Shown here one piece after another: positions 5,596-63,841 of a stretch of 64,000 nt of DNA; position 1 is the first letter of the stretch, and every line of letters starts with the position of its first letter. The stretch comes from Candidatus Shapirobacteria bacterium (lineage in GTDB: Bacteria > Patescibacteriota > Microgenomatia > UBA12405): NCBI GenBank assembly GCA_041659325.1, contig JBAZYN010000004.1:583-64582 (forward strand). The letters are read 5' to 3'. Position numbers and translations under genes: made by a program. Under the pieces are notes generated by a model that ran no database searches, was not told where the DNA came from, and saw nothing but the letters and a program-made list of their open reading frames with translations.

Positions 5596-5608
5596 ATAAT
5601 ATTATTAT

Positions 5609-7027
5609 ATGCAAAACCATTCTAACACACCCAAAACCAGAAAAATAATTGAAGCCCTCTGGAAGTTGGAAAAAATAATTCTTGATACCCTCGATTTCAA
5701 CGAGGTCGTCCAAAAAATCTGTGATGGTTTACTGACCGAACTAGGTTATCTTAAACTTGGCTATCGGATTATTGTTTTGACCCTGGTTGACGAAAATAAA
5801 AAAGTCTTAAAAAGGATATCTCTTTCTCAGACCAAAGAAGCCGCTCGCGCTCAGGCCGCCTCTGCCGTCCCCTTTCATAAAATTGATATCCCGCTTGGGT
5901 CCAGGAACAACCTTTTAATAAAAACACTTAAAAGTAATCAGCCCGAAATTACTCACTATTGGCCCGACATTTTCCGCCCCACTCTCACCGATGACCAGGC
6001 TCTGGCAAACCAGAAGGCTTCCGGTATCAAAACTAGTATGCTTTATCCGGTCACCGTAAAGGACAAGGTCATTGGTGTCGTCATTTTTAGTCTAATCAAG
6101 CACGAAGACAATATTTCCCAAGACGAAAAAGATTTGATCAGAGGCTTTTGCGATATCGTTGGTTTGGCCGTCCAAAATGCCAGGTTATATACCACTCTTG
6201 GTGAAACCTCTGAAAAATTAAAACAAGCCAATGCCAAATTAAAAGAGCTCGATGTCTTAAAAGACGAATTTGTTTCTGTTGCTTCACACGAGCTTCGCAC
6301 CCCCATGACCGCCATCAAATCCTACCTTTGGATGGCCCTAAGCGGTCAAGGCGGCCCTCTCAATTCCAAGCAAAAATTTTATCTTCAAAGATCCCTCGAC
6401 TCAACCGAACGGCTTATCAAGCTCGTCAACAACATGCTAAACATTTCCCGGATAGAGTCCGGCCGGCTCTCCCTGGAGCTAAACAAAGTCGACCTTTCAA
6501 AATTAATAGAGGACGCCATCAACGAAATTGCCCCCCGGGCCAAAGAACTGGGTATCAATTTGGTCTACAATCCGGCTCCGTCCCTTCCAAAAGTTATCGC
6601 CGATGCCGACAAAATCAAAGAGGTGGTGATCAATCTTATCGGCAACTCATTTAAATTTACCCCGAAAAACGGCTCTATTACCGTAAACTTCCAAGTCACT
6701 GATGATCAGGTTATCACCTCTGTCACTGATACCGGATCCGGCCTTTCCCCCGATATGATCAAAAATCTTTTCCAAAAATTTGGACTGATCAAGGGATCTT
6801 ATCAGACCAACCAAACCCCAACCGACCAGGGGACCGGCCTGGGCCTATACATTTGTAAGCAAATCATAGAACTTCATCATGGCACTATTTCCGCCCTCTC
6901 CGAAGGTGTTGGCAAAGGATCAACTTTTAGTTTTTCCTTGCCAGTTTACACTCCCGCCAAGCTCAAACTTTATCAAAAAAAATTCCAGCATACTAGTAAT
7001 ATTGGTATCATTCACAGTAAGATTTAA
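5609..7027 (+). CDS. Cytoplasmic sensor histidine kinase with an N-terminal GAF-like domain
   Basis: H-box SHELRTPMTAIKSY, N-box, and G-boxes DTGSGLS and GTGLGLYICKQIIELHHG. There is no TM segment. Confidence 0.85.
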   Translation: MQNHSNTPKTRKIIEALWKLEKIILDTLDFNEVVQKICDGLLTELGYLKLGYRIIVLTLVDENKKVLKRISLSQTKEAARAQAASAVPFHKIDIPLGSRNNLLIKTLKSNQPEITHYWPDIFRPTLTDDQALANQKASGIKTSMLYPVTVKDKVIGVVIFSLIKHEDNISQDEKDLIRGFCDIVGLAVQNARLYTTLGETSEKLKQANAKLKELDVLKDEFVSVASHELRTPMTAIKSYLWMALSGQGGPLNSKQKFYLQRSLDSTERLIKLVNNMLNISRIESGRLSLELNKVDLSKLIEDAINEIAPRAKELGINLVYNPAPSLPKVIADADKIKEVVINLIGNSFKFTPKNGSITVNFQVTDDQVITSVTDTGSGLSPDMIKNLFQKFGLIKGSYQTNQTPTDQGTGLGLYICKQIIELHHGTISALSEGVGKGSTFSFSLPVYTPAKLKLYQKKFQHTSNIGIIHSKI

Positions 7028-11960: not shown

Positions 11961-11978
11961 TATCTGTATAATTATTTT

Positions 11979-15319: not shown

Positions 15320-15910
15320 CTAGTTCAAATCATTGACTTGAGCGTTGACTACCACTGAACCTTCTGCAAGAGCATCAGCTCTACCGGTATAAAGGTAACC
15401 GTTTCCGCCTCGTACGGTTAATCGGTTATCACCTGAATCGGCATCTGCCTCAACCTCGCTATCCACCATTACCAGATTTACATCTATTTCACTGGCAGGT
15501 TGGTATCCTCCTCCGCATCGGTTTAGAGTATTGCATGGGCTAGTGCAGCCTTCGTCACAGCAGCCGTTTTCTTGTCGGCCGACGGTAACACCACCTCTGG
15601 CAGTTGCCCAAGCTTCACCGGTATCAATTATTCCGGTTACAACCACGGGTTCCTCTTCGGGTTCCTCATGACACCACGGCCCAAAACACGGCATTCTATT
15701 TGTTTCCCTGACTGGAGCGGGAGCGCCAATATTGACATTGTTATCGCCTGAATCGGCTTCTGCCTCCACCTCGCTTTCAATCAGGGTGACATTCGCATTG
15801 ATATCCGGGGTAACCCGGGTCATCCTGGATGGTCGTGTAAGAGCCGAAACTGGTACCGCCACGGCCAAAAGAACGGCCACTGCGGTTAAAGTTGCAATTG
15901 TTTTTTTCAT
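15320..15910 (-). CDS. Small secreted Cys-rich protein sharing the 'EVEA(E/D)ADSGDN' repeat with the upstream 917-aa protein
   Basis: Signal peptide MKKTIATLTAVAVLLAVAVPVSA. Two copies of the repeat flank a central segment with 8 Cys. Confidence 0.55.
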   Translation of the reverse strand: MKKTIATLTAVAVLLAVAVPVSALTRPSRMTRVTPDINANVTLIESEVEAEADSGDNNVNIGAPAPVRETNRMPCFGPWCHEEPEEEPVVVTGIIDTGEAWATARGGVTVGRQENGCCDEGCTSPCNTLNRCGGGYQPASEIDVNLVMVDSEVEADADSGDNRLTVRGGNGYLYTGRADALAEGSVVVNAQVNDLN

Positions 15911-16174
15911 ATGTTTTTTAAATTTTCACCCCCTTTTAAAATTTTTAAATAATAATACGTAAAGGAATAAAACAAAAACACCCCAAACACGCGCCACAAA
16001 CTCCAAAAACATCTCTTTTGTAAATACTATATATACTCATGGAAAAAACAAAAGCCACCTTATATTCTGAATTATCACCAAACCAAAATATCAAGTCAAT
16101 ACTATCAAAACAGGTCACCGAATTTAATCCCAAACGAACCGCTTTATTTTAAAAAGCAAAACAAAACCAAATTT

Positions 16175-16205
16175 TTTTAACTCCGAAAATCCGATTTTCC
16201 GGGCA
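16175..16205 (+). promoter_or_regulatory. Conserved intergenic motif copy A (TTTAACTCCG-AAAATCCGATTTT), near-palindromic
   Basis: It shares TTTAACTCCG...AAAAT.CGATTTT with 18904-18934. Both copies sit about 110-125 nt upstream of a start codon. Confidence 0.5.
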
Positions 16206-16282
16206 TTCGATATCTGCAAACAAGGAACATCAGTCGGGGCAAATAAAAATACCCAAATAATACGAAAAATTTATTTCCATTT

Positions 16283-16293
16283 TGTGGTAAAAT
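16283..16293 (+). promoter_or_regulatory. Extended -10 promoter element (TGtGGTAAAAT) for the 16328 gene
   Basis: TG-n-TAAAAT lies about 35 nt upstream of the start codon in a 417-bp AT-rich intergenic region. Confidence 0.4.
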
Positions 16294-16327
16294 AGAGAAG
16301 GTATAGAGTTTTACGGTTACATTCTTT

Positions 16328-17002
16328 TTGGCGCAGACGAATACAATGGATAACTTATTTGTATATTTTCTTCAAGCTCCTGCTACCGGAAATGATCCTG
16401 TCGTTTGTAAAGGGGCGGAGCAAATACTTAATAGTCTAGGCGATAGTATTAATTTCCAAAAAATTTCTCACCAATCTGAGGAACAAAGAGACCTAATTGA
16501 ACTCCACCAACCTCTGCGAATTTTCACTCTTGGATGTAGCCCCCAATTCGAGGTCACTCCGATTACTTATCTCAATCAAAAATACAATCAGGATTTTCTG
16601 GTTATTTGGTTTGACATCCGGGGATATCCTTTTTTCACCGATCCCGCTTTTTCTCAGCTAGATTTAAATCAGATAATTTTGGCCGGTGTAAACGACCTGG
16701 GTCAGTCCATCACCACCACTTCCTGCCACGAATTAAAAAATGGTCAGTTAATTTATAAAATCCTGAAAAAAGCTAAAAAAAATATTTATATTCATCTCAA
16801 CCTCAACGTTCTCGACCCTCAGGAATTAGGATCAGCTTCCCGCCCCGACGAAAACGGTATTCCCTTCGAAGCTTTAATCAGCCAAATTTTTCAGGTAAAA
16901 AAAGACTTCAACATTGTCGGGATAAGTATCGTCGAAGCCCCAACGATGACTCAATATCAACTGGACAAAGTCAACAAATTAGTACTAAAAACCTTCGAAT
17001 AG
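16328..17002 (+). CDS. Hypothetical protein, possibly a degenerate arginase/deacetylase-fold protein
   Basis: HLNLNVLDP resembles the SxDxDxxDP motif of the arginase family, but the metal-ligand Asp/His residues are not conserved. This is weak. Confidence 0.25.
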   Translation: MAQTNTMDNLFVYFLQAPATGNDPVVCKGAEQILNSLGDSINFQKISHQSEEQRDLIELHQPLRIFTLGCSPQFEVTPITYLNQKYNQDFLVIWFDIRGYPFFTDPAFSQLDLNQIILAGVNDLGQSITTTSCHELKNGQLIYKILKKAKKNIYIHLNLNVLDPQELGSASRPDENGIPFEALISQIFQVKKDFNIVGISIVEAPTMTQYQLDKVNKLVLKTFE

Positions 17003-17008
17003 TAAAAA

Positions 17009-17035
17009 AGTAAGCTATTATTAAACAAGCTTACT
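17009..17035 (+). promoter_or_regulatory. Perfect 8-bp inverted repeat hairpin (AGTAAGCT-N11-AGCTTACT) between two co-directional genes
   Basis: It has no U-tract and abuts the ATG at 17037, so it is an operator or processing/attenuation hairpin rather than a classical terminator. Confidence 0.35.
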
Positions 17036-17036
17036 T

Positions 17037-18359
17037 ATGAAAAAAGATATTCTGTCGCTTCTATCTGTTTTCAGCCTCGCAGTTTTAACCCTTTCTTTTT
17101 CCCCGCCGATTTCTTTTGCCCAAAGTTATACTTCCCGTCAAAGAATTGGTGTCGGTGTCCACTCCCACACTCCCGTAGACTATCTCAATTGGTATGATTT
17201 TCAGGCTTATAATCTTGGTTGGTATTTTACCTGGAAGGGGACCAGTGATTTACCCAACCCTGGCAATATCGATGGAGTTGAATTTATGCCCACGTATTAC
17301 AATGGCAAATGCCCTCAGGCTTCTCTCGATCTGGTAAAAAATAACCCCACTGCCTATCCTTTTGGGACCACTTTTTTGATCGGCAACGAGCTTGGTATGA
17401 CCGAAATTCCCGATATGGCTGTTTATGCCCAGGATTACCGCAATTGTTATCTTGCTCTCAAAAATTTAAATCGAAATTACAAAGTTGTTTTGGGCGCCCT
17501 AACTTCGTCAAGTCGGATATATATGCTCGAAACCATCCGTTCCGAGTATAAAAAAAATTACGGCACTGATTTGCCAACGGACGGTTATCGGGTCAATGTC
17601 TATTTTGAAACTTTGGCCAGTGCCGTCACCAAAATGCGTAATTTTATGAAAAGTGTCGGCGATCAGGATAAGGACTTAATCATCACCGAATCATGCCATC
17701 CCGACAAAACCGAATCCGAAAATGTTGCCTACCTAAAGGAAGCTCTAAACTACACCACCACTACCAAAGATACCTCTATCGGCAAACCGTCCGATAATTA
17801 CATGCTGATCCAGCGCTTTGCCTGGTTTCTTATGAATAGTGCCGTCAACGGTTATTCCAGTTGTTCGCTTTACGATATCAATTTACATGCGGCTGCCTAT
17901 CCTCCCCTTAAAACCAAAAAGACTCAAGTTGGTTTGGCTTTCTCCGATTGGATGGCCAAAAACATCCCCCCGACTGCCTCCAGTCCCACTCCCACCAAAA
18001 AACCCACCCTGATTCCCACCCTTCGCCCCACTTCAACTACAATCCCAACTATCCGTCCGACTTCCACCTCAACTTCCCGCCCCACCTCAACTTCAATCCC
18101 GACCATCCGTCCCACTCCCACCCTCAAACCGACCTCCCTCCCTTCTGCCTCTCCCACCGTCTCCGTCTGTTCCAAAAAAGCCACCGGTGATGCCAACTGT
18201 GATGGTTTGGTAAACATCTTTGATTTTGGAATTTGGAAAGTAGACTTTATTGACTATCGCAGCGGTACCAAAAAAAATATTTGGGACTCAGATTTTGATG
18301 TCGATTCAAAAGTTTCTATCTATGATTTTTCTATCTGGAAACTGGGCTACGGTAAATAA
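17037..18359 (+). CDS. Secreted clan GH-A-like (TIM-barrel) glycoside hydrolase with Pro/Thr linker and C-terminal dockerin-like module
   Basis: Signal peptide. IGNELG (acid/base-like) and IITES (nucleophile-like). A PT-rich linker. Dockerin repeats DANCDGLVNIFDF and DFDVDSKVSIYDF. Confidence 0.5.
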   Translation: MKKDILSLLSVFSLAVLTLSFSPPISFAQSYTSRQRIGVGVHSHTPVDYLNWYDFQAYNLGWYFTWKGTSDLPNPGNIDGVEFMPTYYNGKCPQASLDLVKNNPTAYPFGTTFLIGNELGMTEIPDMAVYAQDYRNCYLALKNLNRNYKVVLGALTSSSRIYMLETIRSEYKKNYGTDLPTDGYRVNVYFETLASAVTKMRNFMKSVGDQDKDLIITESCHPDKTESENVAYLKEALNYTTTTKDTSIGKPSDNYMLIQRFAWFLMNSAVNGYSSCSLYDINLHAAAYPPLKTKKTQVGLAFSDWMAKNIPPTASSPTPTKKPTLIPTLRPTSTTIPTIRPTSTSTSRPTSTSIPTIRPTPTLKPTSLPSASPTVSVCSKKATGDANCDGLVNIFDFGIWKVDFIDYRSGTKKNIWDSDFDVDSKVSIYDFSIWKLGYGK

Positions 18360-18373
18360 AGGCAAATAATAAA

Positions 18374-18772
18374 ATGAAAAATAATAAATATATTTTTGTC
18401 GTCATTGCTTTCATGCTTTTGCTAACGGTGCTGATTTTTGCTCGTTATAATTATCAATTCCAAATATCAAAAAAACCGGGTCACCCGATTATCCCTCCTC
18501 CCGCACTTTCAGAAAGATGCGGTCTGCAAGACTGTCACGGGCTAGATGTTACCTGCGGTCCGGATGTCCCCGAAGTCTGCGACCTGATGTACCAAATAGG
18601 GGACAATTGTCGGCAATACGCGCTCTGCGGTAAAGTCAGCGGCGAATGCCGGCTACAAGCATCACCCAAATTTGATGCCTGTAAATCCTGTGTTCAAACT
18701 TGTGAGCAAAATTTCCAAAACACTTCAGATCCGGCAAAAGTATTCGAGTGCGAAAGCACCTGTTTTGAGTAG
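18374..18772 (+). CDS. Small secreted cysteine-rich protein (14 Cys)
   Basis: N-terminal TM/signal, then a C-rich domain with CxxC and CxxxC spacing. Confidence 0.5.
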   Translation: MKNNKYIFVVIAFMLLLTVLIFARYNYQFQISKKPGHPIIPPPALSERCGLQDCHGLDVTCGPDVPEVCDLMYQIGDNCRQYALCGKVSGECRLQASPKFDACKSCVQTCEQNFQNTSDPAKVFECESTCFE

Positions 18773-18903
18773 CCAATTCGATTAATTAAAGTCAGCTTTT
18801 TTGTAGGTAAACGGCCAACTTCCTGTCGGATATTTTTTAATATTAAATACATAATTTAAATTATTCCTGAGATACCAAAGCATCAAACACCCAAAAGAAT
18901 TCT

Positions 18904-18934
18904 TTAACTCCGGGAAAATGCGATTTTAGGCACC
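18904..18934 (+). promoter_or_regulatory. Conserved intergenic motif copy B (TTTAACTCCGGG-AAAATGCGATTTT)
   Basis: Matches the 16175-16205 copy. It lies 108 nt upstream of the GT2 start. Confidence 0.5.
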
Positions 18935-19019
18935 CCTTTTCGCCATCGTTCAAGATTTTACATTATTTTGTTATTTATCTTATATAAATCTTACAAAACA
19001 TATTGTAGAATACCTTGCC

Positions 19020-19025
19020 TATAAT
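19020..19025 (+). promoter_or_regulatory. -10 box TATAAT for the GT2 gene (short leader without SD)
   Basis: TATAAT lies 16 nt upstream of the ATG at 19042. Confidence 0.35.
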
Positions 19026-19041
19026 ATTATTTCAAAGCCAC

Positions 19042-20076
19042 ATGGCCACAAGCCGCCCCAAAATATCCGTGTTAATCCCTTGCTACAACGAGGGAAAATC
19101 GATCCGCGCCTGTGTTCAGTCTTGCCTTGATCAAACCCGACCATTCGATCAAATTCTTGTCGTCAACGATGGCAGTACCGACAATTCCGCCTCGGCTTTG
19201 AAAAAATTTGGCTCAAAAATCCAAGTTATCACTTTCGACAAGCCCTCGGGAAACAAAAGTTTCTGTCAGGAAAAAGGGCTAAAATACATTACAGGCGATA
19301 TTTTTGTCGCCACCGATGGCGATACAATTCTTGATAAAAACTTTGTTGAACTGATAAAAAATGATTTTGAAAACGAAAATGTCGCTGCCGTTGCTGGCTA
19401 TGTCAGGAGTATCCGCTACAACTGGTTGACTATGTGCCGAGCCTTTGACTATGTAATTGGCCAAAACATCCACAAACTCGCCCAAAAATATTTAGGTTAT
19501 ATTTTTGTCATTCCCGGCGCCGCCTCGGCTTTTAGGACTGAAATTTTTAGGGAATATATCAATTTTGATCACGATACCATTACCGAAGATCTCGATTTTA
19601 CCTATAAACTCCACAAAAACAATCTAAAAATTGCTTACGATAAAAAAGCAATCGTCTACACTCAGGATCCGGATACTCTTCGCTCATATATCGGTCAAAT
19701 GCGCCGTTGGTATGGTGGGGGCTGGCAAAATCTGGTTAAGCATCTCAACCAGGATGTGACCGAAAATCCGCGTATAGTCCTCGAGCTTTCCTTGATTTAC
19801 ATTGAAGGTCTGGTTTTTTCGATTCTTATTTTCATAGTTCCTCTGATAAATATACTTCTGGCTATTAAATTTTTCTTTTATTTATCAATCGTGGTCTTTA
19901 TAGAATCAATTTATGCCTCTTTCGTCGACAGAAGATCCGATTTGCTATTAGTCGTCTTTGTTTATCCTTTCATGATGTACATAAATAGCTTTGTCTCTCT
20001 GGAACAATTTATAAAAGAAGTCGTCCTTAAGCGGCGCAATTTAGTTTGGTATCATCCGGCCAGGAGGGAAATATGA
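19042..20076 (+). CDS. Processive family-2 glycosyltransferase (cellulose/chitin/PNAG-synthase-like) with C-terminal TM helices
   Basis: VLIPCYNE, VNDGSTDNS, DGDT, and the QMRRW (QxxRW) motif. C-terminal hydrophobic helices. The start is taken at the internal ATG; the ORF-track TTG is at 19015. Confidence 0.8.
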   Translation: MATSRPKISVLIPCYNEGKSIRACVQSCLDQTRPFDQILVVNDGSTDNSASALKKFGSKIQVITFDKPSGNKSFCQEKGLKYITGDIFVATDGDTILDKNFVELIKNDFENENVAAVAGYVRSIRYNWLTMCRAFDYVIGQNIHKLAQKYLGYIFVIPGAASAFRTEIFREYINFDHDTITEDLDFTYKLHKNNLKIAYDKKAIVYTQDPDTLRSYIGQMRRWYGGGWQNLVKHLNQDVTENPRIVLELSLIYIEGLVFSILIFIVPLINILLAIKFFFYLSIVVFIESIYASFVDRRSDLLLVVFVYPFMMYINSFVSLEQFIKEVVLKRRNLVWYHPARREI

Positions 20077-20182: not shown

Positions 20183-20683
20183 ATGAAAAAAATATTATCA
20201 CTTCTAACTTTTTTTTCAATTACTTCGGCAGTAGTCTTAAGTGCCGGCATCATTCTCAACCTCTGCATCAAAAACGAACCTAACACTGTCCTTATCGCCC
20301 GTTTCATTGAGTCCCATTCCTCAACCGCTATTGCCCTCGTTAGAAACGATTCGGAGAACTCCACTGTTTTGGGTTCGTCCGATATTCAAAAACAGGCCGA
20401 TAATTCCGGTCTAAATGTCTCCTATGGCCTGCCCCAGAGTGTTTCAGTTTCGCCGGCCATTTGGGTTTTTCGCTCCGGTTGCTTCCCCAAATATCCTTCC
20501 GGAAAAGAAATCCGCTCTCTTGTTGACTATCTGGCCATCAACAATATCGACTATTCTTTTGAAAACAGATACAAACTCGCCCGTGAAAATGGTATAACTA
20601 ACTATCAGGGTACTCCATATCAAAACTTATTTTTGATAACCAGTTTGTCCGGCCAATACCCAGCATGTCTCACATCAAATTAA
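20183..20683 (+). CDS. Secreted hypothetical protein
   Basis: Signal peptide MKKILSLLTFFSITSAVVLSA. No recognised domain. Confidence 0.4.
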   Translation: MKKILSLLTFFSITSAVVLSAGIILNLCIKNEPNTVLIARFIESHSSTAIALVRNDSENSTVLGSSDIQKQADNSGLNVSYGLPQSVSVSPAIWVFRSGCFPKYPSGKEIRSLVDYLAINNIDYSFENRYKLARENGITNYQGTPYQNLFLITSLSGQYPACLTSN

Positions 20684-23600
20684 ATTTTATAAAAATTTGT
20701 TTCTTACTTATAACCGCTCTGTTGTTGCGGTTTGGATTTTCGGAGCATGCCCTCGCCCAAACAGGAAACCTTATCGCCAACCCTTCGGTGGAAACAGCCA
20801 GTTCAACCGGAACCACTCCCCAGGATTGGTTTACTGACAAATGGGGGACAAATACGGCCGTCTTTAGCTACCCAGCCATGGGTTATTTGTCTGATCGGGC
20901 CGTCAAAGTTCAGCTGACCTCAAGATCAAGCGGCGATGCCAAGTGGTATTTCAAGGAAATTCCCGCTACTGCCAATACTAATTACACTTTTTCCGACTAC
21001 TATCAGTCAAACGTGGCCAGTGTCATTGTTGTTGCCACCAAGTTAACCACCGGTAGTTACAACTATCTTACTGTTGCCAACCTTGTCGCCGCCCCTGCCT
21101 GGACCAAAGCAAACGTCACTTTTAAAACACCGGCCAACACTTCCACCGTTACTGTTTATCATCTTATAAACAAAGTTGGTTGGCTAATTACCGACGAATT
21201 TTCTCTTATTTCTACTGTCTCTGTCACTCCCACCCCCACCCCCACTTTAGCTCCGACTCTGACCCCAACTTCTACCCCCACTTCCACCCCCACGATCACT
21301 TCCACGCCGACTCCAATAGTCACAATTATTCCCACCAACACCCCCACCCCCACTGCCACGGCTGTCCCTACGTCTACCTCCACCCCCATTCCGACAGCCA
21401 CTATCGCTCCCACCAACACTCCCACCCCTACCCCCACTCCTGTTACCAATCCTGTTTTGAATCCTTCACTCGAGCAAAACCGACCGACAAACACGAATTT
21501 ACCTATTAATTGGACAAAAGAGAAATGGGGGTCATCCAATACTACCTTTACCTACCTAAAAACCTCCGGCCACACCGGTACCCGATCCATAAAAGTCCAA
21601 ACCACCAGATACACTTCCGGTGATGCCAAGTGGACTTTTGATCCGGTTGCGGTCACCCCGGGCGAGTCCTATTATTTTTCCGACTGGTATCAATCAAATA
21701 TTGTCACCCACCTTGTCGTCAGGTTTACCCTGGCAAACGGCTCATATAGCTATCTCGGCCTTCGGGATGCCCCAATTTCTGCCGCCTGGGCCGAATACAA
21801 AGAGGCTTTTACGGTACCTGTTGGGGTTAAAGCCCTTTCGGTACTTCATTTTATAGACAGGGTCGGCTGGCTGATAACCGACGATTATTCGCTTCAAAAA
21901 TTTACCTCCTCCGGCTATGGGTTACCCCTGGTTTCTTTAACTTTTGACGATGGTTGGGAAGACAACACCCTTACTGCCATGCCACTTTTAAAACAAAACC
22001 AAATTCCGGTAACTTATTATTTTGCCACCACTTTTCTAGTCAATAGCCCCGCAACTGGCGCCATAAATGTCTCCGGTCCATCAGCTGTAAACTATATCTA
22101 CTCCGAGGGTCACGAAATCGGCTCCCATTCTGTTACTCACCCTGATCTAACCACCCTCACCTCTGCCCAAATCATCGCTGAAATCACCGATTCCAAAAAT
22201 TATCTGGAAAACCTTGTGGGTGTTGGCAAGGTTACTAGCTTTGCCACCCCCTTTGGTGCCTACAATGACACTGTTATCACTTCTCTTAAATCATCACTCT
22301 ATCGTAGCCACCGCACCACCGATGAGGGACCAAATACTCCCGAAAATTACGACCGCTATCGTTTAAAGGTTCAAAATCTTCAATCCACCACTACTTTATC
22401 TGAATTCCAAAGCTGGGTTGACCAGGCTGTCGCCGACAAATCCTGGCTGATTCTGGTTTATCATCGAATTGCTTCCTCCGACCTTACTCAATACGACACC
22501 AGTCTGACCGACTTTAATAACCATCTTTCATATCTCAAACAATCCGGAGTCGTCTTTAAAACGGTCAGCCAGGCAATCGACAGTATTGAAAATGTTGTTC
22601 CCACCGTCACAACTACTATTGCTCCCACTTCAACCAATACTCCAATCCCCACATCAACTTCCATTCCCACCGCCACTCCCACCTCGATCATCACCCCCAC
22701 CCCAACCACCGACCCGGCCCCCACCTCTACTCCGCTTCCCGTCTATCCCACGCCGACATATTTCCCGCAGCCGACAGCCGGCCCCAATCTAATCCTCAAC
22801 AATTCCCTCGAAATAGGCGATACTCTTAACTCCTCCCTGCCGGATAAGTGGCAAAAAAATAACTGGGGGACAAATACTACCGTCTTTACCTATCCAGTCC
22901 CAGCTATTGATGGCTCTGCCGCCGCCAAGACCGAAATTACCTCATTCACCGATGGTGATGGCAAATGGTATTTTAGTGATGTTGCCGTTACTCCCAACAC
23001 CGTTTATCAGTTTTCCGATCAATACCAATCAAACATTTCCTCCCGTATTACCGTCCGCTATTTTCATGATGACGGCACCTATACTTACGTTGATATCGGT
23101 AATGTGGTCGCTTCCGCCGATTGGTCCACTTTTACCGGCGAAATCACTATTCCTACCGATGTCCATTCGATTACCGTCTTTCACCTGATTGAAAGTATCG
23201 GCTGGATTATCACCGACAATTATTCTCTTCGTCAAAAAGCCGCTCCAATCCCTTTCAGCCAGGGGATGGTTTCCTTAACTTTTGACGACGGTTGGCTCTC
23301 AGTTTATCAAAATGCTATTCCCGCCCTCAATGCCGCCGGTTTTAAAAGTACTCAATATATCACCACTAGCTTTTTGGGGACTACCGATTATATGAGCGTC
23401 GACAACGTTTTGGCCATGCAGATTTCTGGCCACGAAATCGCTAGTCACTCCCTCAGTCATCTCCAACTGCCCACCCTAAACGAGTCTCAAATCCGTCAAG
23501 AGGTTTCCGACTCCCGAGTGACTCTCCTTGGCATGGGCTTTTCTCTGGTCAAATCATTTGCTTATCCGTACGGTGAATATAATGATCTAATTCTTCGCAT

Positions 23601-23916
23601 CACCAAGGAATCCGGCTATACCACTGCCCGCACCGCCGTCCCCTTCGATTCGGGATACAACTATAAACATACCGACCCTTTCATGCTCAAAAACTTTTCC
23701 GTAGAAGTCGATACCACCCTCGACCAAGTCAAAACTTGGATAGATACCGCCAACCAAAACAAGACCTGGTCAATTCTGGTTTTCCATCAGGTGGATACCA
23801 GTGGCGGCCAGTATTCTATCAGCCCAACCTTGCTCCAAGGTATTGTCGATTATCTTACCCAAACCGGTACCAGTGTTGTTACCGTCAGCCAAGGCCTTGG
23901 CCAAATGCTCAATTGA
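20665..23916 (+). CDS. Secreted multidomain polysaccharide deacetylase: three CBM-like beta-sandwich modules plus two NodB (CE4) deacetylase domains, joined by Pro/Thr linkers
   Basis: Signal peptide. A repeated 'NPSxE...WxxxKWGTNTxVFTY...GDAKWYF...YQSN...HLI..VGWLITD' module (x3). LTFDDGW and HEI(G/A)SHS(V/L)(T/S)H motifs (x2). PT-rich linkers at about 21230-21450 and 22600-22760. Confidence 0.8.
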   Translation: MSHIKLNFIKICFLLITALLLRFGFSEHALAQTGNLIANPSVETASSTGTTPQDWFTDKWGTNTAVFSYPAMGYLSDRAVKVQLTSRSSGDAKWYFKEIPATANTNYTFSDYYQSNVASVIVVATKLTTGSYNYLTVANLVAAPAWTKANVTFKTPANTSTVTVYHLINKVGWLITDEFSLISTVSVTPTPTPTLAPTLTPTSTPTSTPTITSTPTPIVTIIPTNTPTPTATAVPTSTSTPIPTATIAPTNTPTPTPTPVTNPVLNPSLEQNRPTNTNLPINWTKEKWGSSNTTFTYLKTSGHTGTRSIKVQTTRYTSGDAKWTFDPVAVTPGESYYFSDWYQSNIVTHLVVRFTLANGSYSYLGLRDAPISAAWAEYKEAFTVPVGVKALSVLHFIDRVGWLITDDYSLQKFTSSGYGLPLVSLTFDDGWEDNTLTAMPLLKQNQIPVTYYFATTFLVNSPATGAINVSGPSAVNYIYSEGHEIGSHSVTHPDLTTLTSAQIIAEITDSKNYLENLVGVGKVTSFATPFGAYNDTVITSLKSSLYRSHRTTDEGPNTPENYDRYRLKVQNLQSTTTLSEFQSWVDQAVADKSWLILVYHRIASSDLTQYDTSLTDFNNHLSYLKQSGVVFKTVSQAIDSIENVVPTVTTTIAPTSTNTPIPTSTSIPTATPTSIITPTPTTDPAPTSTPLPVYPTPTYFPQPTAGPNLILNNSLEIGDTLNSSLPDKWQKNNWGTNTTVFTYPVPAIDGSAAAKTEITSFTDGDGKWYFSDVAVTPNTVYQFSDQYQSNISSRITVRYFHDDGTYTYVDIGNVVASADWSTFTGEITIPTDVHSITVFHLIESIGWIITDNYSLRQKAAPIPFSQGMVSLTFDDGWLSVYQNAIPALNAAGFKSTQYITTSFLGTTDYMSVDNVLAMQISGHEIASHSLSHLQLPTLNESQIRQEVSDSRVTLLGMGFSLVKSFAYPYGEYNDLILRITKESGYTTARTAVPFDSGYNYKHTDPFMLKNFSVEVDTTLDQVKTWIDTANQNKTWSILVFHQVDTSGGQYSISPTLLQGIVDYLTQTGTSVVTVSQGLGQMLN

Positions 23917-27807: not shown

Positions 27808-27863
27808 TGGTCTAGTATAGTCATTTTACAAACCAAATAAATCTTATAAACTAACACTACTCT

Positions 27864-29108: not shown

Positions 29109-29179
29109 AACAAAGCCGGCTTTTCCCGGTTGACTACTGAGAATATTTTACCTATTCTAAGTATTAGCATTGTCAGGAG

Positions 29180-29300
29180 AATCTCCTTTCCGTTCATGCG
29201 GAGTAGGGGTCGGCAACCGAGTCCTCGACATAAGTCGGAATCGCGGTGCCATTGAACTCCGGTATCACCGGAACTCAGACATGCCTCTTATTAATTAAGG
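29180..29300 (+). ncRNA. Putative SAM-responsive riboswitch (SAM-I-like or SAM-I/IV variant) in the metK leader
   Basis: Contains GGCAACC, a P3-like hairpin, GGUGCCAUUGAACUCC (SAM-I 'GGUGCCAAUUCC' box) and a P4-like hairpin CCGGU-AUC-ACCGG. A CCUCUU segment can pair with the AAGGAGG SD just before the ATG. Confidence 0.5.
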
Positions 29301-29307
29301 AGGAAAA

Positions 29308-30420
29308 ATGAACTATTCTCTATTTACGTCCGAATCTGTTTGCGCCGGTCACCCCGATAAAGTTTGCGACCAAATTTCCGATGCTGTTGTCGATGCCGCC
29401 ATTAAACTTTACCCCAAATCCCGGGTTGCCTGCGAATCCCTGGTTACCGGCGGCAAAATTGTTTTGGCCGGTGAAGTTACCTGTCCGCTGCCCATAAATT
29501 TTGAAGAAATCGCCAGGAATAAAGTTAAAGAATTGGGCTATATAAAAAAAGAATTGGGATTTAATTACAAAGCGGATGTCGAAGTTTATATTCACCGCCA
29601 GTCTCCCGATATCGCCCTGGGTGTTGATGACGGTGGGGCAGGGGATCAGGGGATGATGTTTGGTTATGCCTGTGACGAAACTAAAAATTTAATGCCTCTA
29701 CCAATTACCTTAGCCCACGAATTATGCCGGCAAATGGATGAGTTACACTCCAAATATTCCTGGCTCCGTCCCGATGGTAAATCCGAAGTTGCCGTCAATT
29801 ATGAAAAAGGCCGTCCCGTTTCTGTGGAAAAAATTGTTTTGGCCAAACCCATAAATTACAAGGAAATTGGGAGCGATGAAGCAAAAGATATTTTGTATGA
29901 GCAGGCAATCAAACCGATCATGGATAAATACAAAATGAATTTAATTATAAAAGACCAGGTCATCTTTAATGGTACTGGGAAATGGGAAATTGGTGGTCCG
30001 GCTTCTGATACCGGTGTAACCGGCCGGAAAATTGTTGTCGATACTTACGGTGGCATGGCCAGAATCGGTGGCGGCTGTTTTTCGGGTAAAGATACCACCA
30101 AAGTAGACAGGAGCGCCGCCTATGCCGCCCGATTGATTGCCAAAAATATTGTTGCCGCCGGTTTAGCCCGCCGCTGCGAGGTTCAACTTGCTTATGCTAT
30201 CGGGGTAAGGGATCCCATCGCCAAAGCCGTCGAGACTTTTGGCACGGCAACAAAAGACCAAAAAGTTATCAGTGATTTTGCCTGGGAATTACTGGATCTT
30301 TCTGTAGAAGGCATTAACACTGGTTTGAACCTCCGCCAACCGATATATCAAAAAACCGCTGCCTACGGCCATTTCGGTAATCCGCTTTATCCTTGGGAAA
30401 AATTGTCGATTTCTTCCTGA
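29308..30420 (+). CDS. metK: S-adenosylmethionine synthetase
   Basis: FTSESVCAGHPDKVCDQISDAV, GGGCFSGKDTTKVDRSAAYAAR, and the glycine-rich GDQG loop. Confidence 0.92.
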   Translation: MNYSLFTSESVCAGHPDKVCDQISDAVVDAAIKLYPKSRVACESLVTGGKIVLAGEVTCPLPINFEEIARNKVKELGYIKKELGFNYKADVEVYIHRQSPDIALGVDDGGAGDQGMMFGYACDETKNLMPLPITLAHELCRQMDELHSKYSWLRPDGKSEVAVNYEKGRPVSVEKIVLAKPINYKEIGSDEAKDILYEQAIKPIMDKYKMNLIIKDQVIFNGTGKWEIGGPASDTGVTGRKIVVDTYGGMARIGGGCFSGKDTTKVDRSAAYAARLIAKNIVAAGLARRCEVQLAYAIGVRDPIAKAVETFGTATKDQKVISDFAWELLDLSVEGINTGLNLRQPIYQKTAAYGHFGNPLYPWEKLSISS

Positions 30421-34170: not shown

Positions 34171-34254
34171 AGAAAGATTCTACCACAAGATAAGCGGAAA
34201 TAACTAACCTGCAAAGATGATAAAAATTGGTATCGGATAGGCTATTATTAATAT

Positions 34255-37032
34255 GTGGTGAAAAAGATCATCTTTTTTCTATTCCTGTGGCTTGGGTCAA
34301 CTTCTGATTTACAGGCCGCCGACCTCCAAAGCACCTATCTTCGTCTGGACAGAAACAAAACCGGTCTTAGCCCCGGAAAAGTCTTGGTAGTCACCAAAAC
34401 AACTTCATCGGCTACCGAAGATGGTGTCAGAATTACCGTCGGCACCGGTTGGACTATTAACACTAATGCTTCTGCTTTTTCAGTTTCTACCATAAATTTA
34501 CCCGAAGGAGTTTCTGCCTGGCCGGGGATAGACACTGCTGTCGCGGTCAACGGCCAAGCAATCACTTTTCCCGGTGTCGACCTGGCTCCGGGCGAATTTT
34601 ATGGCTTCTATATTACCGGTGGAATAGGCGTAAACGGCCAGGTTAGCAGCAGCAACTATGTTTGGGAGGTTGCCACTTTAAGCGGTGGATTAGCCGACGG
34701 TACCATAGAGGTTGGGGTGCCGGTTGTGGCCGCTGATTCAATCACGGTAACTGGAACTGTTCCCGCCAATCCCTCAGATTATCCGGTCAGTATTTCCTCG
34801 GACCTTACCGGAAACGCGTCACAAAACCAGACACTCAACTATCAGATAGATTATGGTTCTTTATCTGCCGCCATTACCAAACCTCTGACCATAAAAGCCG
34901 AGTGGAGTCGTGGTACTCTGGAGAACTTTCCTATCCCGACTCTGGATATACTTGATTATGTAATCGGTAGCGGTACCAGTGCTTACAATGGGGTAGAGCC
35001 GGTAATAGATCTGATTGACCGGACAATTACCTGGACAATTCCCGATTTCCCGACAAACACTTTAGGTCAGACTGTTAGTTTCAGTCTGCAGACAAACGAT
35101 CAATATACCGGTTCCAGCCTAGTTAATTTCGATGTCAGTGTCACCGTCACTGCCGGTAACATCACGGTTGCTACCGACACAATAAACCAATATTATCAAT
35201 ACAATCCGCCATATTTATCACCAACTCCGACCCCGACCTCAATCCCCACTCCCACTTCTGTTTCCACTCCGGCTCCGACCTCTACCTCCACTCCCGCAAT
35301 TACTCTCGCTCCCGGTATTCCCACGGCCACGTCCGCCCCTGCAGCAACCTCGACTCCGGTTCAAGGCCCGACTCCCACCCCAAAACCTTTTAGGGAAAAG
35401 CTCAAAATAGAGAAAGTAGAAATAATAAATTTGTCCTCAAACGAGGCTGGAATCAGGGTAGCTACCAATATCCCTCTTGATAAATTAATTTTGACATATG
35501 GTTTAACTCCGAAAAAAATTACTCAAAAAATTATATTTTTAAAGCCGGATAATTTCGAAATATTTTTACTAACCAACCTTAATCCCCAAAACCTATATTA
35601 TTTTCGTTTGGAAGCACAAGCCGATACCGATAGATTGTTTTCGGATATTTTTACTTTCAAAACTCCCGCCGTTTCTGATCTTCCCGAAGTTGTAAAATCC
35701 ACTCTACTAGCGAATAGTGACGGTAAGGTTTTATATGACGCCGCCAGAATAGACAAAGAAATCAATGATTATTTGGTAATTATTCCCAAAGCGGTTGAAT
35801 ATTCTATTCAATTCCAGGTCGATAAACACGATTTGGTAAAGCAGGCTACCCTGATATTAAAAAGCCGCCAGGTTTTGGGGATTAGTAGCGCCTATGGAGC
35901 GGAACCCGCCAGTAGTTTAACTGATTTAATCGAAATTAGACCCGGTTGGTTCATGGGAAGACTTTTAAGTCCTTCAGAAGTAAGCTTCTATGAAATGTCC
36001 GTCAGACTGTCGGGTATCAACGGCACCATAATAGAAAACAAGTTGGCCGACATGGAAATAATCGAGCCGATGCGAATTTTGGAGTTGGAATCCCTTGCTC
36101 CCATTGAATCCGCCAAAGTCGAAATTAGTTTGTATAATTCAAAAGAAAAAAGGTTTTTAATAATCCCCCCAAACACTCTGTTGTCAGAAAATCCCGTATT
36201 TTCAGAAACAGACGGTGAAGTGGCTTTGGTTCTGCCAAGGGGTAAATATCGGGCCAAAGTCACTGCTTTGGGTTATTCAGAAAAACAAACCGAGTTTGAA
36301 ATTAGCGCTGGTGGCGATTTAAAGCTACCGTCAATTTATCTAGAAAAAGACAAATTTAATTTATTGGTAGTTGGCAGATATTACTCTGGTACTTTCACAG
36401 ATGTTTGGCAATATTGTAAAAACAACCTGAAATATCTATTTTCCTCCGGAAGATTTTTCAATCTAGTCGCCCTGATAAACTTGATTCTGCTGGTTATTAA
36501 TACCACTATATTTTATAGAAATAGCCTAAAAACTAACATTTTCGGAGGCAAAAACCGCGACGACTATATAGATGGAAAAATAAATGTCTCTGGAGCCGAT
36601 ATCATTCTGATTGATGCTGAAGCCAGTAGGATCCTGGCCAAAACCAAAAGCAATTGGTTGGGGCGCTTCCGTTTCAAGCTCAAACCGGCCAAAAGATATA
36701 AGTTGTCTGCCTCCAAAAGCGGATACGAGACTTCCCCGTTCTTTGAATATGTTGGCGATGAGGGAATTTTAGCAGGCGATATTAAAATCAATCTGAAAAG
36801 ATCAGAAGACAAACAAAAACTCAAATATATCCTCAACGAGTGGTTCTACTGGGAAATTTCAGATTTATCTACGGGGGTTTTAAACATTTCAGTCTTGTTG
36901 GTCGAAATACTTTTTATTAATAAATTCGGTTGGTCGGCAACCGCTATATGGATATTAATTGGTATATTAAATTTAATCTTGTGGTTAGTTTATACTTACA
37001 GAAATGGCAATAAAGTGGTGGCAAAACCTTAA
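34255..37032 (+). CDS. Large surface protein (925 aa): signal peptide, N-domain shared with the 38138 protein, PT linker, CarboxypepD_reg-like domain, C-terminal TM helices
   Basis: The N-terminus LRLDRNKTGLSPGKVLVVTKTTSSATEDGVRITVG is homologous to the 38138 protein. PT linker at about 35220-35400. GKINVSGADIILID...GYETS fold. Two C-terminal hydrophobic helices. Confidence 0.6.
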   Translation: MVKKIIFFLFLWLGSTSDLQAADLQSTYLRLDRNKTGLSPGKVLVVTKTTSSATEDGVRITVGTGWTINTNASAFSVSTINLPEGVSAWPGIDTAVAVNGQAITFPGVDLAPGEFYGFYITGGIGVNGQVSSSNYVWEVATLSGGLADGTIEVGVPVVAADSITVTGTVPANPSDYPVSISSDLTGNASQNQTLNYQIDYGSLSAAITKPLTIKAEWSRGTLENFPIPTLDILDYVIGSGTSAYNGVEPVIDLIDRTITWTIPDFPTNTLGQTVSFSLQTNDQYTGSSLVNFDVSVTVTAGNITVATDTINQYYQYNPPYLSPTPTPTSIPTPTSVSTPAPTSTSTPAITLAPGIPTATSAPAATSTPVQGPTPTPKPFREKLKIEKVEIINLSSNEAGIRVATNIPLDKLILTYGLTPKKITQKIIFLKPDNFEIFLLTNLNPQNLYYFRLEAQADTDRLFSDIFTFKTPAVSDLPEVVKSTLLANSDGKVLYDAARIDKEINDYLVIIPKAVEYSIQFQVDKHDLVKQATLILKSRQVLGISSAYGAEPASSLTDLIEIRPGWFMGRLLSPSEVSFYEMSVRLSGINGTIIENKLADMEIIEPMRILELESLAPIESAKVEISLYNSKEKRFLIIPPNTLLSENPVFSETDGEVALVLPRGKYRAKVTALGYSEKQTEFEISAGGDLKLPSIYLEKDKFNLLVVGRYYSGTFTDVWQYCKNNLKYLFSSGRFFNLVALINLILLVINTTIFYRNSLKTNIFGGKNRDDYIDGKINVSGADIILIDAEASRILAKTKSNWLGRFRFKLKPAKRYKLSASKSGYETSPFFEYVGDEGILAGDIKINLKRSEDKQKLKYILNEWFYWEISDLSTGVLNISVLLVEILFINKFGWSATAIWILIGILNLILWLVYTYRNGNKVVAKP

Positions 37033-57397: not shown

Positions 57398-58132
57398 ATG
57401 AACATAACAAGCCAAAAAGGAATTATCCTCTGGCCGTTGATATTAGGTACAGCCGTCTTACTTGGTGCTGTCATACTGGTTCACAGCATTACAGAAACTC
57501 AAAAGTCCAAACTCGAAAGTGCTTCCACCACCCCTGTCACCCAAAACGCCTCAACATCTTCTGCCACTCCAGCGGTATCCGGGTCTCAAACAAAAGGTAT
57601 AATCAGTGGCTCCCTTATTTATCCGAGTGAACAAATCCCCCAAGATTTGGGAGTTTGCGCCCAGAGAATCGATAGCCCCGAACTGGTGGTATGCACCAAT
57701 CAAACTAAAGATAGTAAATTTCAATATGGTGTCGGCTACGAACTTTCTCTTGATCCGGGAAACTACTATGTCTATTCATTTCTGGCCAACGCCAAAGCCT
57801 ATTACACCGAGTATGTTTTGTGCGGTCTAAAAGCCGAATGCAAAAGTCACACAAAAATTCCGGTCGTTGTTACCGCCGGCAGTCACCAGGACAATGTTCT
57901 GCCTCACGACTGGTACGATATCGGACCCACCGAAACCTCCACGCCCTCAAATACTCCCACCCCGAATCCAACCACCGTCTCCACCGTCAAGCCGACATTA
58001 AAAATTGTTCCCGTTGTTTCAATTAAGTTAGAAAAAGAAATGATAAATATCCTGCCCACTGCCACCCCCACTCCGATTCCAACTGTAATAATAAAACCCA
58101 TCGAAAAACCCAAGTTTGAATTGAGTTGGTAG
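57398..58132 (+). CDS. Membrane-anchored hypothetical protein with PT-rich C-terminal region
   Basis: N-terminal TM (ILWPLILGTAVLLGAVILV). The start is moved to the internal ATG because the ORF-track start at 57242 overlaps the hydrolase gene. Confidence 0.45.
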   Translation: MNITSQKGIILWPLILGTAVLLGAVILVHSITETQKSKLESASTTPVTQNASTSSATPAVSGSQTKGIISGSLIYPSEQIPQDLGVCAQRIDSPELVVCTNQTKDSKFQYGVGYELSLDPGNYYVYSFLANAKAYYTEYVLCGLKAECKSHTKIPVVVTAGSHQDNVLPHDWYDIGPTETSTPSNTPTPNPTTVSTVKPTLKIVPVVSIKLEKEMINILPTATPTPIPTVIIKPIEKPKFELSW

Positions 58133-58252: not shown

Positions 58253-58336
58253 AGGTTCTAGAATCTTATTTTACCGCAAAAAGCTACATAAATCCGCTCT
58301 AAACCACCATTTTGCCTTTTTTGTTATAATCGGCCC

Positions 58337-58939: not shown

Positions 58940-59008
58940 TCAAAGCCCCCCGTCGTCTTTCTCTGTGATAAAATTCACTTGTACCAGATATTAGTTAAAA
59001 ATCTAACA

Positions 59009-61798: not shown

Positions 61799-61835
61799 TT
61801 AACTTAGGCAATTACGTTTTGTTTATAATCTTTAC

Positions 61836-63816: not shown

Positions 63817-63841
63817 TATCCCCGTGCGCTATAATATCCAC

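Follow-up and report, generated by a model that had tools for sequence, protein, structure and literature searches.

Distal regulatory sites of bacteria include those of CRP at class I promoters, which extend to −92.5, the binding sites of Fis and IHF, and the upstream activating sequences (UAS) of NtrC-type regulators at −100 to −140. Palindromic operators made of A/T runs are exemplified by the CodY box (AATTTTCWGAAAATT) and the LacI-family cre (TGWAANCGNTNWCA). Short repeated sequences also serve recombination, as in the recombinase-less IMEX and pdif modules, which use the host Xer proteins at dif-like sites. Bacteria of the Candidate Phyla Radiation (CPR) cannot grow alone and have very few regulators. 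To our knowledge, the control of transcription in these organisms has hardly been characterized, and we know of no characterized transcription factor of Shapirobacteria. A full-text literature search for operator motifs of Patescibacteria found nothing.

Here we analyze a short sequence that occurs twice in a 64-kb stretch of DNA from a Candidatus Shapirobacteria bacterium (hereafter the window), once upstream of each of two adjacent operons. The sequence may represent a lineage-specific distal protein-binding site common to both operons, a reading to which we assign a probability of roughly 40%.

A motif of 23–25 nt occurs twice upstream of adjacent operons

The region comprises the following features.

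16176–16198, + strand: motif copy 1, TTTAACTCCGAAAATCCGATTTT, 23 nt, composed of TTTAACTCCG and AAAATCCGATTTT
16346–17002, + strand: operon 1, first gene, 218-aa arginase-fold-like protein with a Pfam match just below threshold
17037–18359, + strand: operon 1, second gene, secreted 440-aa protein, Pro/Thr-rich linker, weak dockerin-like C-terminus
18374–18772, + strand: operon 1, third gene, 132-aa Cys-rich protein, secreted or membrane-anchored, with no family match
18903–18927, + strand: motif copy 2, TTTAACTCCGGGAAAATGCGATTTT, 25 nt, composed of TTTAACTCCG, GG and AAAATGCGATTTT
19042–20076, + strand: operon 2, first gene, family-2 glycosyltransferase (GT2), PgaC/chitin-synthase-like
20183–20683, + strand: operon 2, second gene, 166-aa protein with no assigned function, which follows GT2 in relatives too
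20665–23916, + strand: operon 2, third gene, 1083-aa protein, two polysaccharide deacetylase domains plus a carbohydrate-binding module

The two copies have 22 of 23 bases in common and are separated by a 2-nt indel. The alignment consists of a first block with 10/10 identical bases, the additional GG of copy 2, and a second block with 12/13 identical bases, and the distance between the blocks consequently differs by 2 nt. The best conserved part is TTTAACTCCG, which is asymmetric. The first-pass annotation had reported this shared sequence; both copies are present as quoted, at the positions listed above rather than at 16175–16205 and 18904–18934. Only the core of 23–25 nt is shared and its edges are sharp, the flanks of 25–60 nt on both sides being no more alike than shuffled sequences (p 0.23–1.0). 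A search of the window that tolerated 5 substitutions over the full motif, or 3 over its core, found no third copy, and neither did a search of the 5 kb past the window end, which brings the sequence covered to about 69 kb. Within this sequence, the small regulon suggested by the first-pass annotation would comprise the two sites only. An exact TTTAACTCCGAAAA at 35502 was considered as a third site; it lies inside a gene for a 925-aa protein, is not accompanied by the second block, and was treated as a coincidence. The motif is non-coding, with an indel of 2 nt that shifts the frame. A coding reading was rejected, as the small ORFs over the motif use different frames for the conserved bases. 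Neither of the two spacers contains pseudogene remnants of neighboring or ancestral genes.

The likeness of the two copies is real and beyond chance. The local alignment of the two spacers scores 38, compared with 23.1 ± 3.0 for dinucleotide shuffles, of which 3 in 3000 reach this value, and the pair ranks first among 306 real intergenic comparisons, with a runner-up score of 30. When all spacers of the window are shuffled, a score of 38 is reached in 2 of 300 sets. These tests are conservative, as the score includes a gap penalty; a rough analytical estimate would place the probability of an exact 10-mer with a collinear 12/13-mer at 1e-5 to 1e-4. The motif pattern itself does not occur in any of 100 shuffles, a test that is circular because the pattern was derived from the same data.

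Operon 2 is clearly a polysaccharide-related module for glycan synthesis and deacetylation. The idea that both copies belong to a single functional polysaccharide locus holds for this operon; for operon 1 there is only the sub-threshold arginase-fold match and the presence of PF11790 (glycosyl hydrolase catalytic core) in a 36%-identical homologue of the 440-aa protein. Genes of regulatory type in the window encode a histidine kinase and a receiver-only response regulator, and a gene for an ECF sigma factor (63824–64396) is found just past the window end, at a distance of some 45 kb. No DNA-binding regulator of the HTH type was found among the window ORFs scanned with Pfam, a set that comprised all but four ORFs, one of these four being of 3140 aa.

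Position relative to promoters and orthologous loci

Each copy is followed by a putative promoter of the extended −10 type.

16283–16293, + strand: putative extended −10 promoter of operon 1, TGTGGTAAAAT, hexamer at 16288–16293, kept in the orthologous spacer of L097
18973–19011, + strand: putative GT2 promoter block, TATCTTATATAAA-N15-TGTAGAAT, hexamer at 19006–19011
19016–19025: second −10-like sequence before GT2, TGCCTATAAT

The GT2 block aligns with TATCTwGTAGCAG-N15-TGTAAAAT in three relatives. An extended −10 element of the operon 1 type is also present upstream of tRNA-Trp. The copies share the strand of the operons that follow them and lie 78–89 nt upstream of the ortholog-conserved promoters. 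The distance from the dyad center to the first base of the −10 hexamer is 96 nt for copy 1 and 85 nt for copy 2, an offset of 11 nt that approximates one helical turn; the latter distance becomes 99 nt if TATAAT at 19020 is the −10 element of GT2. Transcription of operon 1 would start near 16300. Counted from the starts predicted from the conserved −10 elements, the motif would span about −124 to −102 (copy 1) and −115 to −91 (copy 2), and not adjoin the core promoter (about −80 to +20) as expected of an operator. Positions of about −91 to −124 are outside the usual zone of bacterial operators.

With respect to the genes, the gene caller places the first start codon of operon 1 at the ATG at 16346, in place of the TTG at 16328 chosen by the first-pass annotation, and the motif ends 147 nt before this codon and 114 nt before that of GT2. 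These values replace the first-pass figures of about 108–123 nt. The two copies do share orientation and have a similar distance to the promoters of two adjacent operons. The spacers that contain the motif are 435 and 269 nt long, two of the three longest in the window of a compact genome, and orthologous promoter regions measure 70–130 nt. Copy 2 starts 131 nt past the stop codon of the preceding gene, and copy 1 starts 23 nt past the stop of a possible ORF of 37 codons (16039–16152).

The first-pass annotation had taken the AAAAT/ATTTT arms, described as an imperfect inverted repeat, as a sign of a dimeric operator; in both copies the repeat is in fact perfect over 5 bp. This argument fails, since 16% of the real intergenic 23-mers of the window contain an inverted repeat of 5 bp or more, which makes the AAAAT-N3-ATTTT dyad uninformative. 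Furthermore, the dyad is a perfect 6+1+6 in copy 1 (AAAATC-C-GATTTT) and a 5+3+5 in copy 2, and over the extended arms 9 of 11 positions match in copy 1 (CTCCGAAAATC/GATTTTCCGGG) and 5 of 11 in copy 2. The dyad is not the conserved feature of the motif: it is neither conserved between the two sites nor above background, as the operator of a dimeric factor should be.

The orthologous loci of the closest relatives used (62–77% protein identity) were compared for GT2 (L048, L049, L099 and L100), for the arginase-like gene (L097 and L098) and for the glycosyl hydrolase (GH)-like gene (L103). The motif is absent upstream of the orthologs in all seven, and the conservation upstream of orthologous genes that is expected of an operator was not observed. 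The orthologous −10/−35 promoter blocks are kept although the motif is missing, and both copies sit just upstream of the point where likeness to the orthologous promoters starts. We also scanned public genome, metagenome and viral contigs, a collection that does not include the source MAG, for the pattern AACTCCG-N0-3-AAAATNCGATTTT. The scan returned 46, 47 and 1 single matches, respectively, which is about the number expected by chance. The matches belong to unrelated taxa and fall mostly in coding DNA or unrelated hairpins; none was found in related genomes or in the source organism.

A proposed distal binding site and its alternatives

Our favored reading is a protein-binding site on double-stranded DNA, some 100 bp before the housekeeping-type promoters of two neighboring surface/polysaccharide operons. 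The motif itself, the orientation of its copies, their position relative to conserved promoters, the sharp edges and the absence of RNA structure are observed. One factor bound at both copies would modulate both operons, whether by activation from a distance, by shaping the DNA as an architectural protein, or by repression through looping. We infer the binding of a protein and an effect on transcription from these features, and the near-identity of a discrete core of 23–25 nt between random flanks fits constraint on a short site. Several observations stand against a binding site. There are only two copies in about 69 kb and none at orthologous promoters; the position is atypical; the dyad is unlike between copies and common by chance; the sub-blocks are spaced 2 nt differently; and the scanned ORFs include no DNA-binding regulator. 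The second site probably arose by copying of a short DNA stretch and not by convergence, because a binding protein does not normally require as much identity as 22/23. That this value is above the one usual for independent binding sites, so that a copying event is assumed in any case, also counts against a binding site.

The main rival to a binding site is a rearrangement, which we consider possible and, on the whole, unlikely. The copies would be direct repeats bordering a 2.7-kb block of three genes (16199–18902) that was placed before GT2, by a single-crossover (Campbell-type) event, by site-specific integration of a circular intermediate, or by duplication followed by deletion; any regulatory role would be absent or incidental. 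The arrangement resembles att- or dif-like sites in that sharp-bordered direct repeats (22/23 bases, random flanks) enclose exactly one discrete three-gene unit, with a near-perfect identity that is lost abruptly on both sides, as in attL/attR cores. The onset of the ortholog promoter likeness immediately downstream of both copies agrees with such an event. In three relatives the block is absent at this position, and vanZ is followed directly by GT2 across a spacer of about 70 nt. In L097, a gene with the same Pro/Thr linker and dockerin-like C-terminus precedes the arginase-like gene, an order permuted with respect to that in the window, and in L103 the GH-like gene is found in yet another context. 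This variation indicates that the neighborhood is prone to rearrangement.

Other data argue against the rearrangement. No integrase, recombinase, resolvase or transposase was found in or beside the window among the Pfam-scanned ORFs (all but the same four, which include that of 3140 aa), and there is no sign of a chromosomal dif, the GC skew being monotonic and free of a terminus-like switch. The GC and GC3 contents of the block are ordinary, with no signature of foreign DNA, and the spacers are free of decayed gene remnants. No empty site with a single copy was found in the relatives, a weak test given that their proteins are only 62–77% identical. A second assembly of the same sample is identical here and provides no variant without the block. 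Finally, a rearrangement would leave the similar distance from copy to promoter as a coincidence. No result here discriminates between a regulatory site and a scar of rearrangement or of direct repeats.

In a more specific form of this origin, which we regard as highly doubtful, this CPR bacterium would have a gene-cassette system that lacks its own recombinase and uses the copies as recombination sites, and a recombinase supplied in trans would excise or insert the 2.7-kb block, with its three genes for secreted or surface proteins, before the glycan synthase operon. Such a system would produce phase-like variation of the cell surface at the population level in an episymbiotic lineage, and would account for the shuffled gene order in relatives.

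It is improbable that the motif is, or overlaps, a promoter, be it that of an alternative sigma factor such as ECF on the + strand or one of housekeeping type on the − strand. Typical consensus sequences are GG-N10-GC for sigma-54 and AAC-N16–17-CGT-like for ECF factors, with AAC typical of ECF −35 elements. The motif includes AAC within TTTAAC, the spacing TTTAAC-N20-GGCA is the same in both copies, where the 2-nt insertion is offset by a loss of 2 nt, and an ECF sigma gene is present just past the window end. Against this, no CGT-type −10 element is found 16–17 nt past AAC, CGA following at 10 nt (copy 1) or 12 nt (copy 2). By inspection, copy 2 contains GG-N11-GC with TTCGC, which deviates from the sigma-54 consensus, and copy 1 contains nothing comparable. 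The region before the ECF gene contains a TATAAT of its own and nothing similar to the motif. On the − strand, copy 2 and its flank read TGCCTAAAAT (18932–18923), in agreement with the extended −10 element TGnnTAnAAT of this genome, but the corresponding sequence of copy 1, TGCCCGGAAAAT, has no T at −12 and an incorrectly spaced TG. No conserved ORF follows on this strand, and the small ORFs there use different frames.

The prospect that the motif is a low-copy member of a REP- or MITE-like family of intergenic repeats, with no specific regulatory function, is also poor. The motif is short, intergenic and partly palindromic (arms of copy 1 at 9/11) and has sharp edges. Families of this type are characterized by many copies and by a stable hairpin or terminal inverted repeats, but only two copies exist in 69 kb, in the same orientation and both upstream of operons, terminal inverted repeats are missing from the inspected flanks, and the hairpin, made of A-T pairs throughout, is weak. 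The public scans provided no match in related genomes.

An RNA element that acts post-transcriptionally, as a leader, a terminator or part of an sRNA, is very improbable. The positions downstream of a stop codon (131 nt for copy 2, and 23 nt for copy 1 if the 37-codon ORF is counted) would suit such an element, and an AAAAU/AUUUU hairpin is formally possible. However, this hairpin is missing from the minimum-energy structures, and its sixth pair is broken in copy 2 with no compensation. The folding energy of four motif-centered segments of 76–81 nt, on both strands, is no better than that of shuffles (z-scores of −0.19 to +0.65). Two longer segments that reach the promoter gave z-scores of +0.17 and −2.28, and the stable hairpin of the latter (copy 2, 18897–19015) lies downstream of the motif. 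A search of Rfam gave no match for the motif, either with the gathering threshold or with a cutoff of E ≤ 5, and no terminator was called at the motif; in this genome, genuine terminators consist of a GC-rich hairpin with a T-run behind it. The motif, moreover, precedes the ortholog-conserved promoters.

A chance likeness of two AT-rich spacers can practically be dismissed: their length gives them the most opportunity to match, and whole-set shuffles do reach the observed gap-penalized local score, but only at the frequencies given above (3/3000 pair-wise and 2/300 family-wise), and the exact 10-mer with its collinear 12/13 block would be far rarer than the score implies.

With two copies and no conservation in relatives, the motif is a modest and unproven lead, a candidate site of low priority at most. 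If it is a control site, this DNA word would be a concrete probe for regulators and a seed for a regulon search. If it is a rearrangement scar, it would document the shuffling of surface-protein modules beside a conserved PgaC-like synthase locus. Either outcome would be useful but incremental.

Comparison with known systems

The motif resembles REP/BIME and MITE-like repeats in being short, partly palindromic and exclusively intergenic. It differs from them by its very low copy number, the weak hairpin, the absence of terminal inverted repeats and its location upstream, not downstream, of genes. Like attL/attR cores, the copies are direct repeats of about 25 bp, nearly identical and sharply bordered, and they enclose a discrete block that carries no recombinase and that relatives lack at this position. 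Unlike in att elements, no recombinase is found among the scanned ORFs, the composition of the block is native and relatives show no empty site. Compared with dif-like sites, the motif does not have 11-bp arms around a central region of 6–8 bp, and is located away from any GC-skew switch.

The CodY box and cre share with the motif GAAAAT/ATTTTC half-sites around a central C/G. The order of the half-sites is inverted in the motif with respect to the CodY box, and its center is odd-numbered, in contrast to that of cre. The motif differs from both in the extra asymmetric block TTTAACTCCG, its best conserved part, and no protein of the CodY or LacI family is present among the window ORFs scanned.

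Relative to described distal transcription-factor sites and UAS, the motif has no known cognate factor and no sigma-54 promoter downstream, its dyad is poorly kept between the copies, and there are two sites with no cross-species conservation. In common with these systems, it is a short, oriented word on double-stranded DNA, located about 100 bp upstream of a core promoter, which includes a small dyad and is common to neighboring, functionally related operons.

Two copies of a short word before two operons

The source of the window is a metagenome-assembled genome of Candidatus Shapirobacteria (CPR/Patescibacteria). The two motif sequences quoted in the first-pass annotation were both found, on the plus strand, each in the spacer ahead of an operon.

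16176–16198, plus strand: motif copy 1, TTTAACTCCGAAAATCCGATTTT
18903–18927, plus strand: motif copy 2, TTTAACTCCGGGAAAATGCGATTTT
15911–16345: spacer carrying copy 1
18773–19041: spacer carrying copy 2

An identical 10-mer opens both copies; a 2-nt indel separates it from a 13-mer that differs at one position, so that 22/23 positions are identical. A fuzzy search that tolerated 5 substitutions over the full motif, or 3 within its core, turned up no further copy in the 64 kb of the window, nor was one present in the 5 kb past its end, taken from a second assembly of the same sample. The local-alignment score of the two motif-carrying spacers, 38, is the highest of 306 intergenic comparisons in the window (runner-up, 30). 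Among 3000 dinucleotide-preserving shuffles of the pair, 3 scored as high, as did 2 of 300 when all spacers were shuffled. Because the gap penalty undervalues the motif match, chance, a minor alternative for the pair, is effectively excluded. The flanks outside the core resemble each other no better than shuffles do (p 0.23–1.0), so what the copies share is a discrete 23–25-nt word and not the tip of a longer repeat. The 14-nt TTTAACTCCGAAAA occurs exactly a third time at 35502–35515 (plus strand), inside the gene of a 925-aa protein (34255–37032), where the motif's second block is missing; this is probably a coincidence, though a 14-mer match is unexpected.

Operon 1, ATG at 16346: 218-aa arginase-fold-like protein, first gene after copy 1
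Operon 1: 440-aa secreted protein; Pro/Thr linker, dockerin-like tail
Operon 1: 132-aa Cys-rich protein
Operon 2, after copy 2: PgaC/chitin-synthase-like GT2
Operon 2: 166-aa conserved protein
Operon 2: 1083-aa double polysaccharide deacetylase, also carrying a carbohydrate-binding module

The gene caller starts the first gene at this ATG and not at TTG 16328, as previously assumed. The description of the region as a polysaccharide locus is well founded for operon 2, with its GT2 and deacetylase domains. For operon 1 it is no more than plausible; there, a homologue of the 440-aa protein at 36% identity carries PF11790 (glycosyl hydrolase catalytic core). The 435-nt spacer of copy 1 also contains a candidate 37-codon ATG ORF, MEKTKATLYSELSPNQNIKSILSKQVTEFNPKRTALF (16039–16152, plus strand), without a family match, whose stop lies 23 nt before the motif. 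The divergent gene (15320–15910, minus strand) encodes a 196-aa secreted protein with an internal direct repeat (15425–15468 and 15740–15783; spacing 315 nt, 86% identity over 44 nt) that duplicates a SEVEA(E/D)ADSGDN peptide module. C-rich direct repeats (CCCACC...) at 17975–18160, 21217–21460, 22596–22741, 35193–35304, 57934–58072 and 59108–59180 encode the Pro/Thr-rich linkers of several secreted proteins, and account for a locally strong negative GC skew.

Promoters and gene order in relatives

Promoters in this genome are of the extended -10 type, TGnnnTAnAAT, often just 6–15 nt ahead of the start codon (e.g., 11965–11972, 58322–58330, 58964–58974 and 61820–61829 on the plus strand; 34177–34187, 27823–27830 and 5604–5613 on the minus strand), which suggests that many mRNAs have no leader or a very short one.

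16283–16293: inferred operon 1 promoter, TGTGGTAAAAT
18973–19011: inferred GT2 promoter block, TATCTTATATAAA-N15-TGTAGAAT
18923–18932, minus strand: extended -10-like element TGCCTAAAAT, overlapping copy 2
18955–18962, minus strand: extended -10-like element TGTAAAAT

The operon 1 element TGTGGTAAAAT and about 45 nt ahead of it are kept in the orthologous spacer of relative L097 (64% protein identity); the element also precedes tRNA-Trp. For the GT2 block, the aligned sequence in three relatives at 75–77% protein identity (L048, L049, L099) is TATCTwGTAGCAG-N15-TGTAAAAT. The motif is located upstream of both promoters, ending 89 nt (copy 1) and 78 nt (copy 2) from the -10 hexamer, and spans about -124 to -102 and -115 to -91, respectively, relative to the inferred transcription starts.

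Neither the motif nor a recognizable variant was found upstream of GT2 in these three relatives or in L100, of the arginase-like gene in L097 or L098, or of the GH-like gene in L103. GT2 in relatives follows vanZ after a spacer of about 70 nt. The gene order is permuted in L097, where a gene (2–268) that shares its linker and dockerin-like C-terminus with the 440-aa protein precedes the arginase-like gene (397–1041) by 128 nt, whereas in the window (16346–18359) the GH/dockerin-like gene follows it; the GH-like gene of L103 has yet other neighbours. The motif and the long spacers that carry it are therefore lineage-specific, and the order of the surrounding genes is fluid.

A putative binding site and a possible rearrangement

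We consider the motif a putative distal protein-binding site common to both operons, with a probability of about 0.4. Its conservation is sharp-edged, both copies have the same orientation and lie in unusually long spacers, and their distances to two different ancestral promoters are similar and helically in phase: the dyad centre is 96 nt (copy 1) and 85 nt (copy 2) from the first hexamer base, a difference of 11 nt, or about one helical turn. Against this stand the existence of two copies only, the relatives without the motif, its far-upstream position, the variable spacing of its sub-blocks, and the lack of a DNA-binding regulator among the window ORFs scanned. The AAAAT-N3-ATTTT inverted repeat, previously read as a sign of a dimeric operator, lends little support: the dyad is perfect over 5 bp (6+1+6 in copy 1) and shorter in copy 2, one like it is present in 16% of the real intergenic 23-mers of the window, and the strictest conserved block of the motif, TTTAACTCCG, is asymmetric.

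Less probably, the copies are direct repeats left when the 2.7-kb three-gene block was placed before GT2. Near-identity with an abrupt loss of similarity has the look of att-like or single-crossover junctions, relatives do not have the block at this position, and similarity to the orthologous promoters starts a little downstream of each copy; but no recombinase turned up among the ORFs scanned with Pfam, the composition of the block is native, an empty site is missing from the relatives, and no variant occurs in the second assembly. A scar and a binding site are not exclusive, since 22/23 identity implies a copying event either way.

Minor alternatives

A promoter on either strand is a minor reading. 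Copy 2 does read as TGCCTAAAAT on the minus strand, and the two minus-strand elements point to the 3' end of the gene at 18374–18772 and to a called 52-codon ORF (18694–18852, minus strand), making antisense transcription possible; the motif spacing does not fit a sigma-54 or ECF-type promoter. Just beyond the window end, no motif-like sequence precedes the gene of an ECF-type sigma factor (Sigma70_r2 and r4_2). This gene probably starts at ATG 63843, directly after its own TGCGCTATAAT, and is followed by that of a 131-aa protein without a significant family match, for which a membrane anti-sigma partner is our guess; the pair lies at 63824–64000 of the window and 5607–6582 of L101, the second assembly.

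Membership of a low-copy repeat family is similarly minor. Exact-pattern scans of collections outside which the source genome lies gave 46 (genome), 47 (metagenome) and 1 (viral) matches, all single and in unrelated taxa, with no similar flanks among them. The scans also brought up elements unrelated to the motif: a short metagenome contig (L066, 434–993) on which AACTCCGAAAATTCGATTTT occurs three times, at intervals of 180 and 360 nt, and intergenic hairpins AAAAATCCGATTTTTT..AAAAATCGGATTT in L009, L060 (9015–9060) and L073 (2420–2471), the last a Gram-negative organism, as it encodes a Kdo transferase.

An RNA element is also a minor possibility. Four motif-centred segments (76–81 nt, both strands) fold no better than shuffles (z -0.19 to +0.65), the AAAAU/AUUUU hairpin is absent from the minimum-energy folds, its sixth pair is broken in copy 2 without compensation, and the motif has neither an Rfam match nor a terminator call. 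Extended up to the promoter, copy 1 (16170–16300) gives z +0.17, and copy 2 (18897–19015) z -2.28 (5/200), with a stable hairpin downstream of the motif, beside the GT2 promoter. Elsewhere, the 199-nt spacer (29109–29307, plus strand) ahead of metK (SAM synthetase; 29308–30420) is a candidate for an unclassified SAM-type riboswitch or structured leader: RNA 29150–29310 folds at -53 kcal/mol versus -39.3 ± 3.8 for shuffles (z -3.58, 0/200), and CCUCUU in the last hairpin pairs with the AAGGAGG ribosome-binding site; Rfam gave no match even at E ≤ 5.

A coding origin was rejected, as the 2-nt indel causes a frameshift and the conserved bases fall in differing frames of the small ORFs that cross the motif; nor is the motif a pseudogene remnant. 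The regulatory interpretation of the confirmed motif is neither supported nor refuted. Short intergenic motifs shared between genes are an ordinary kind of feature, of which this is another case, from a lineage that is poorly understood.
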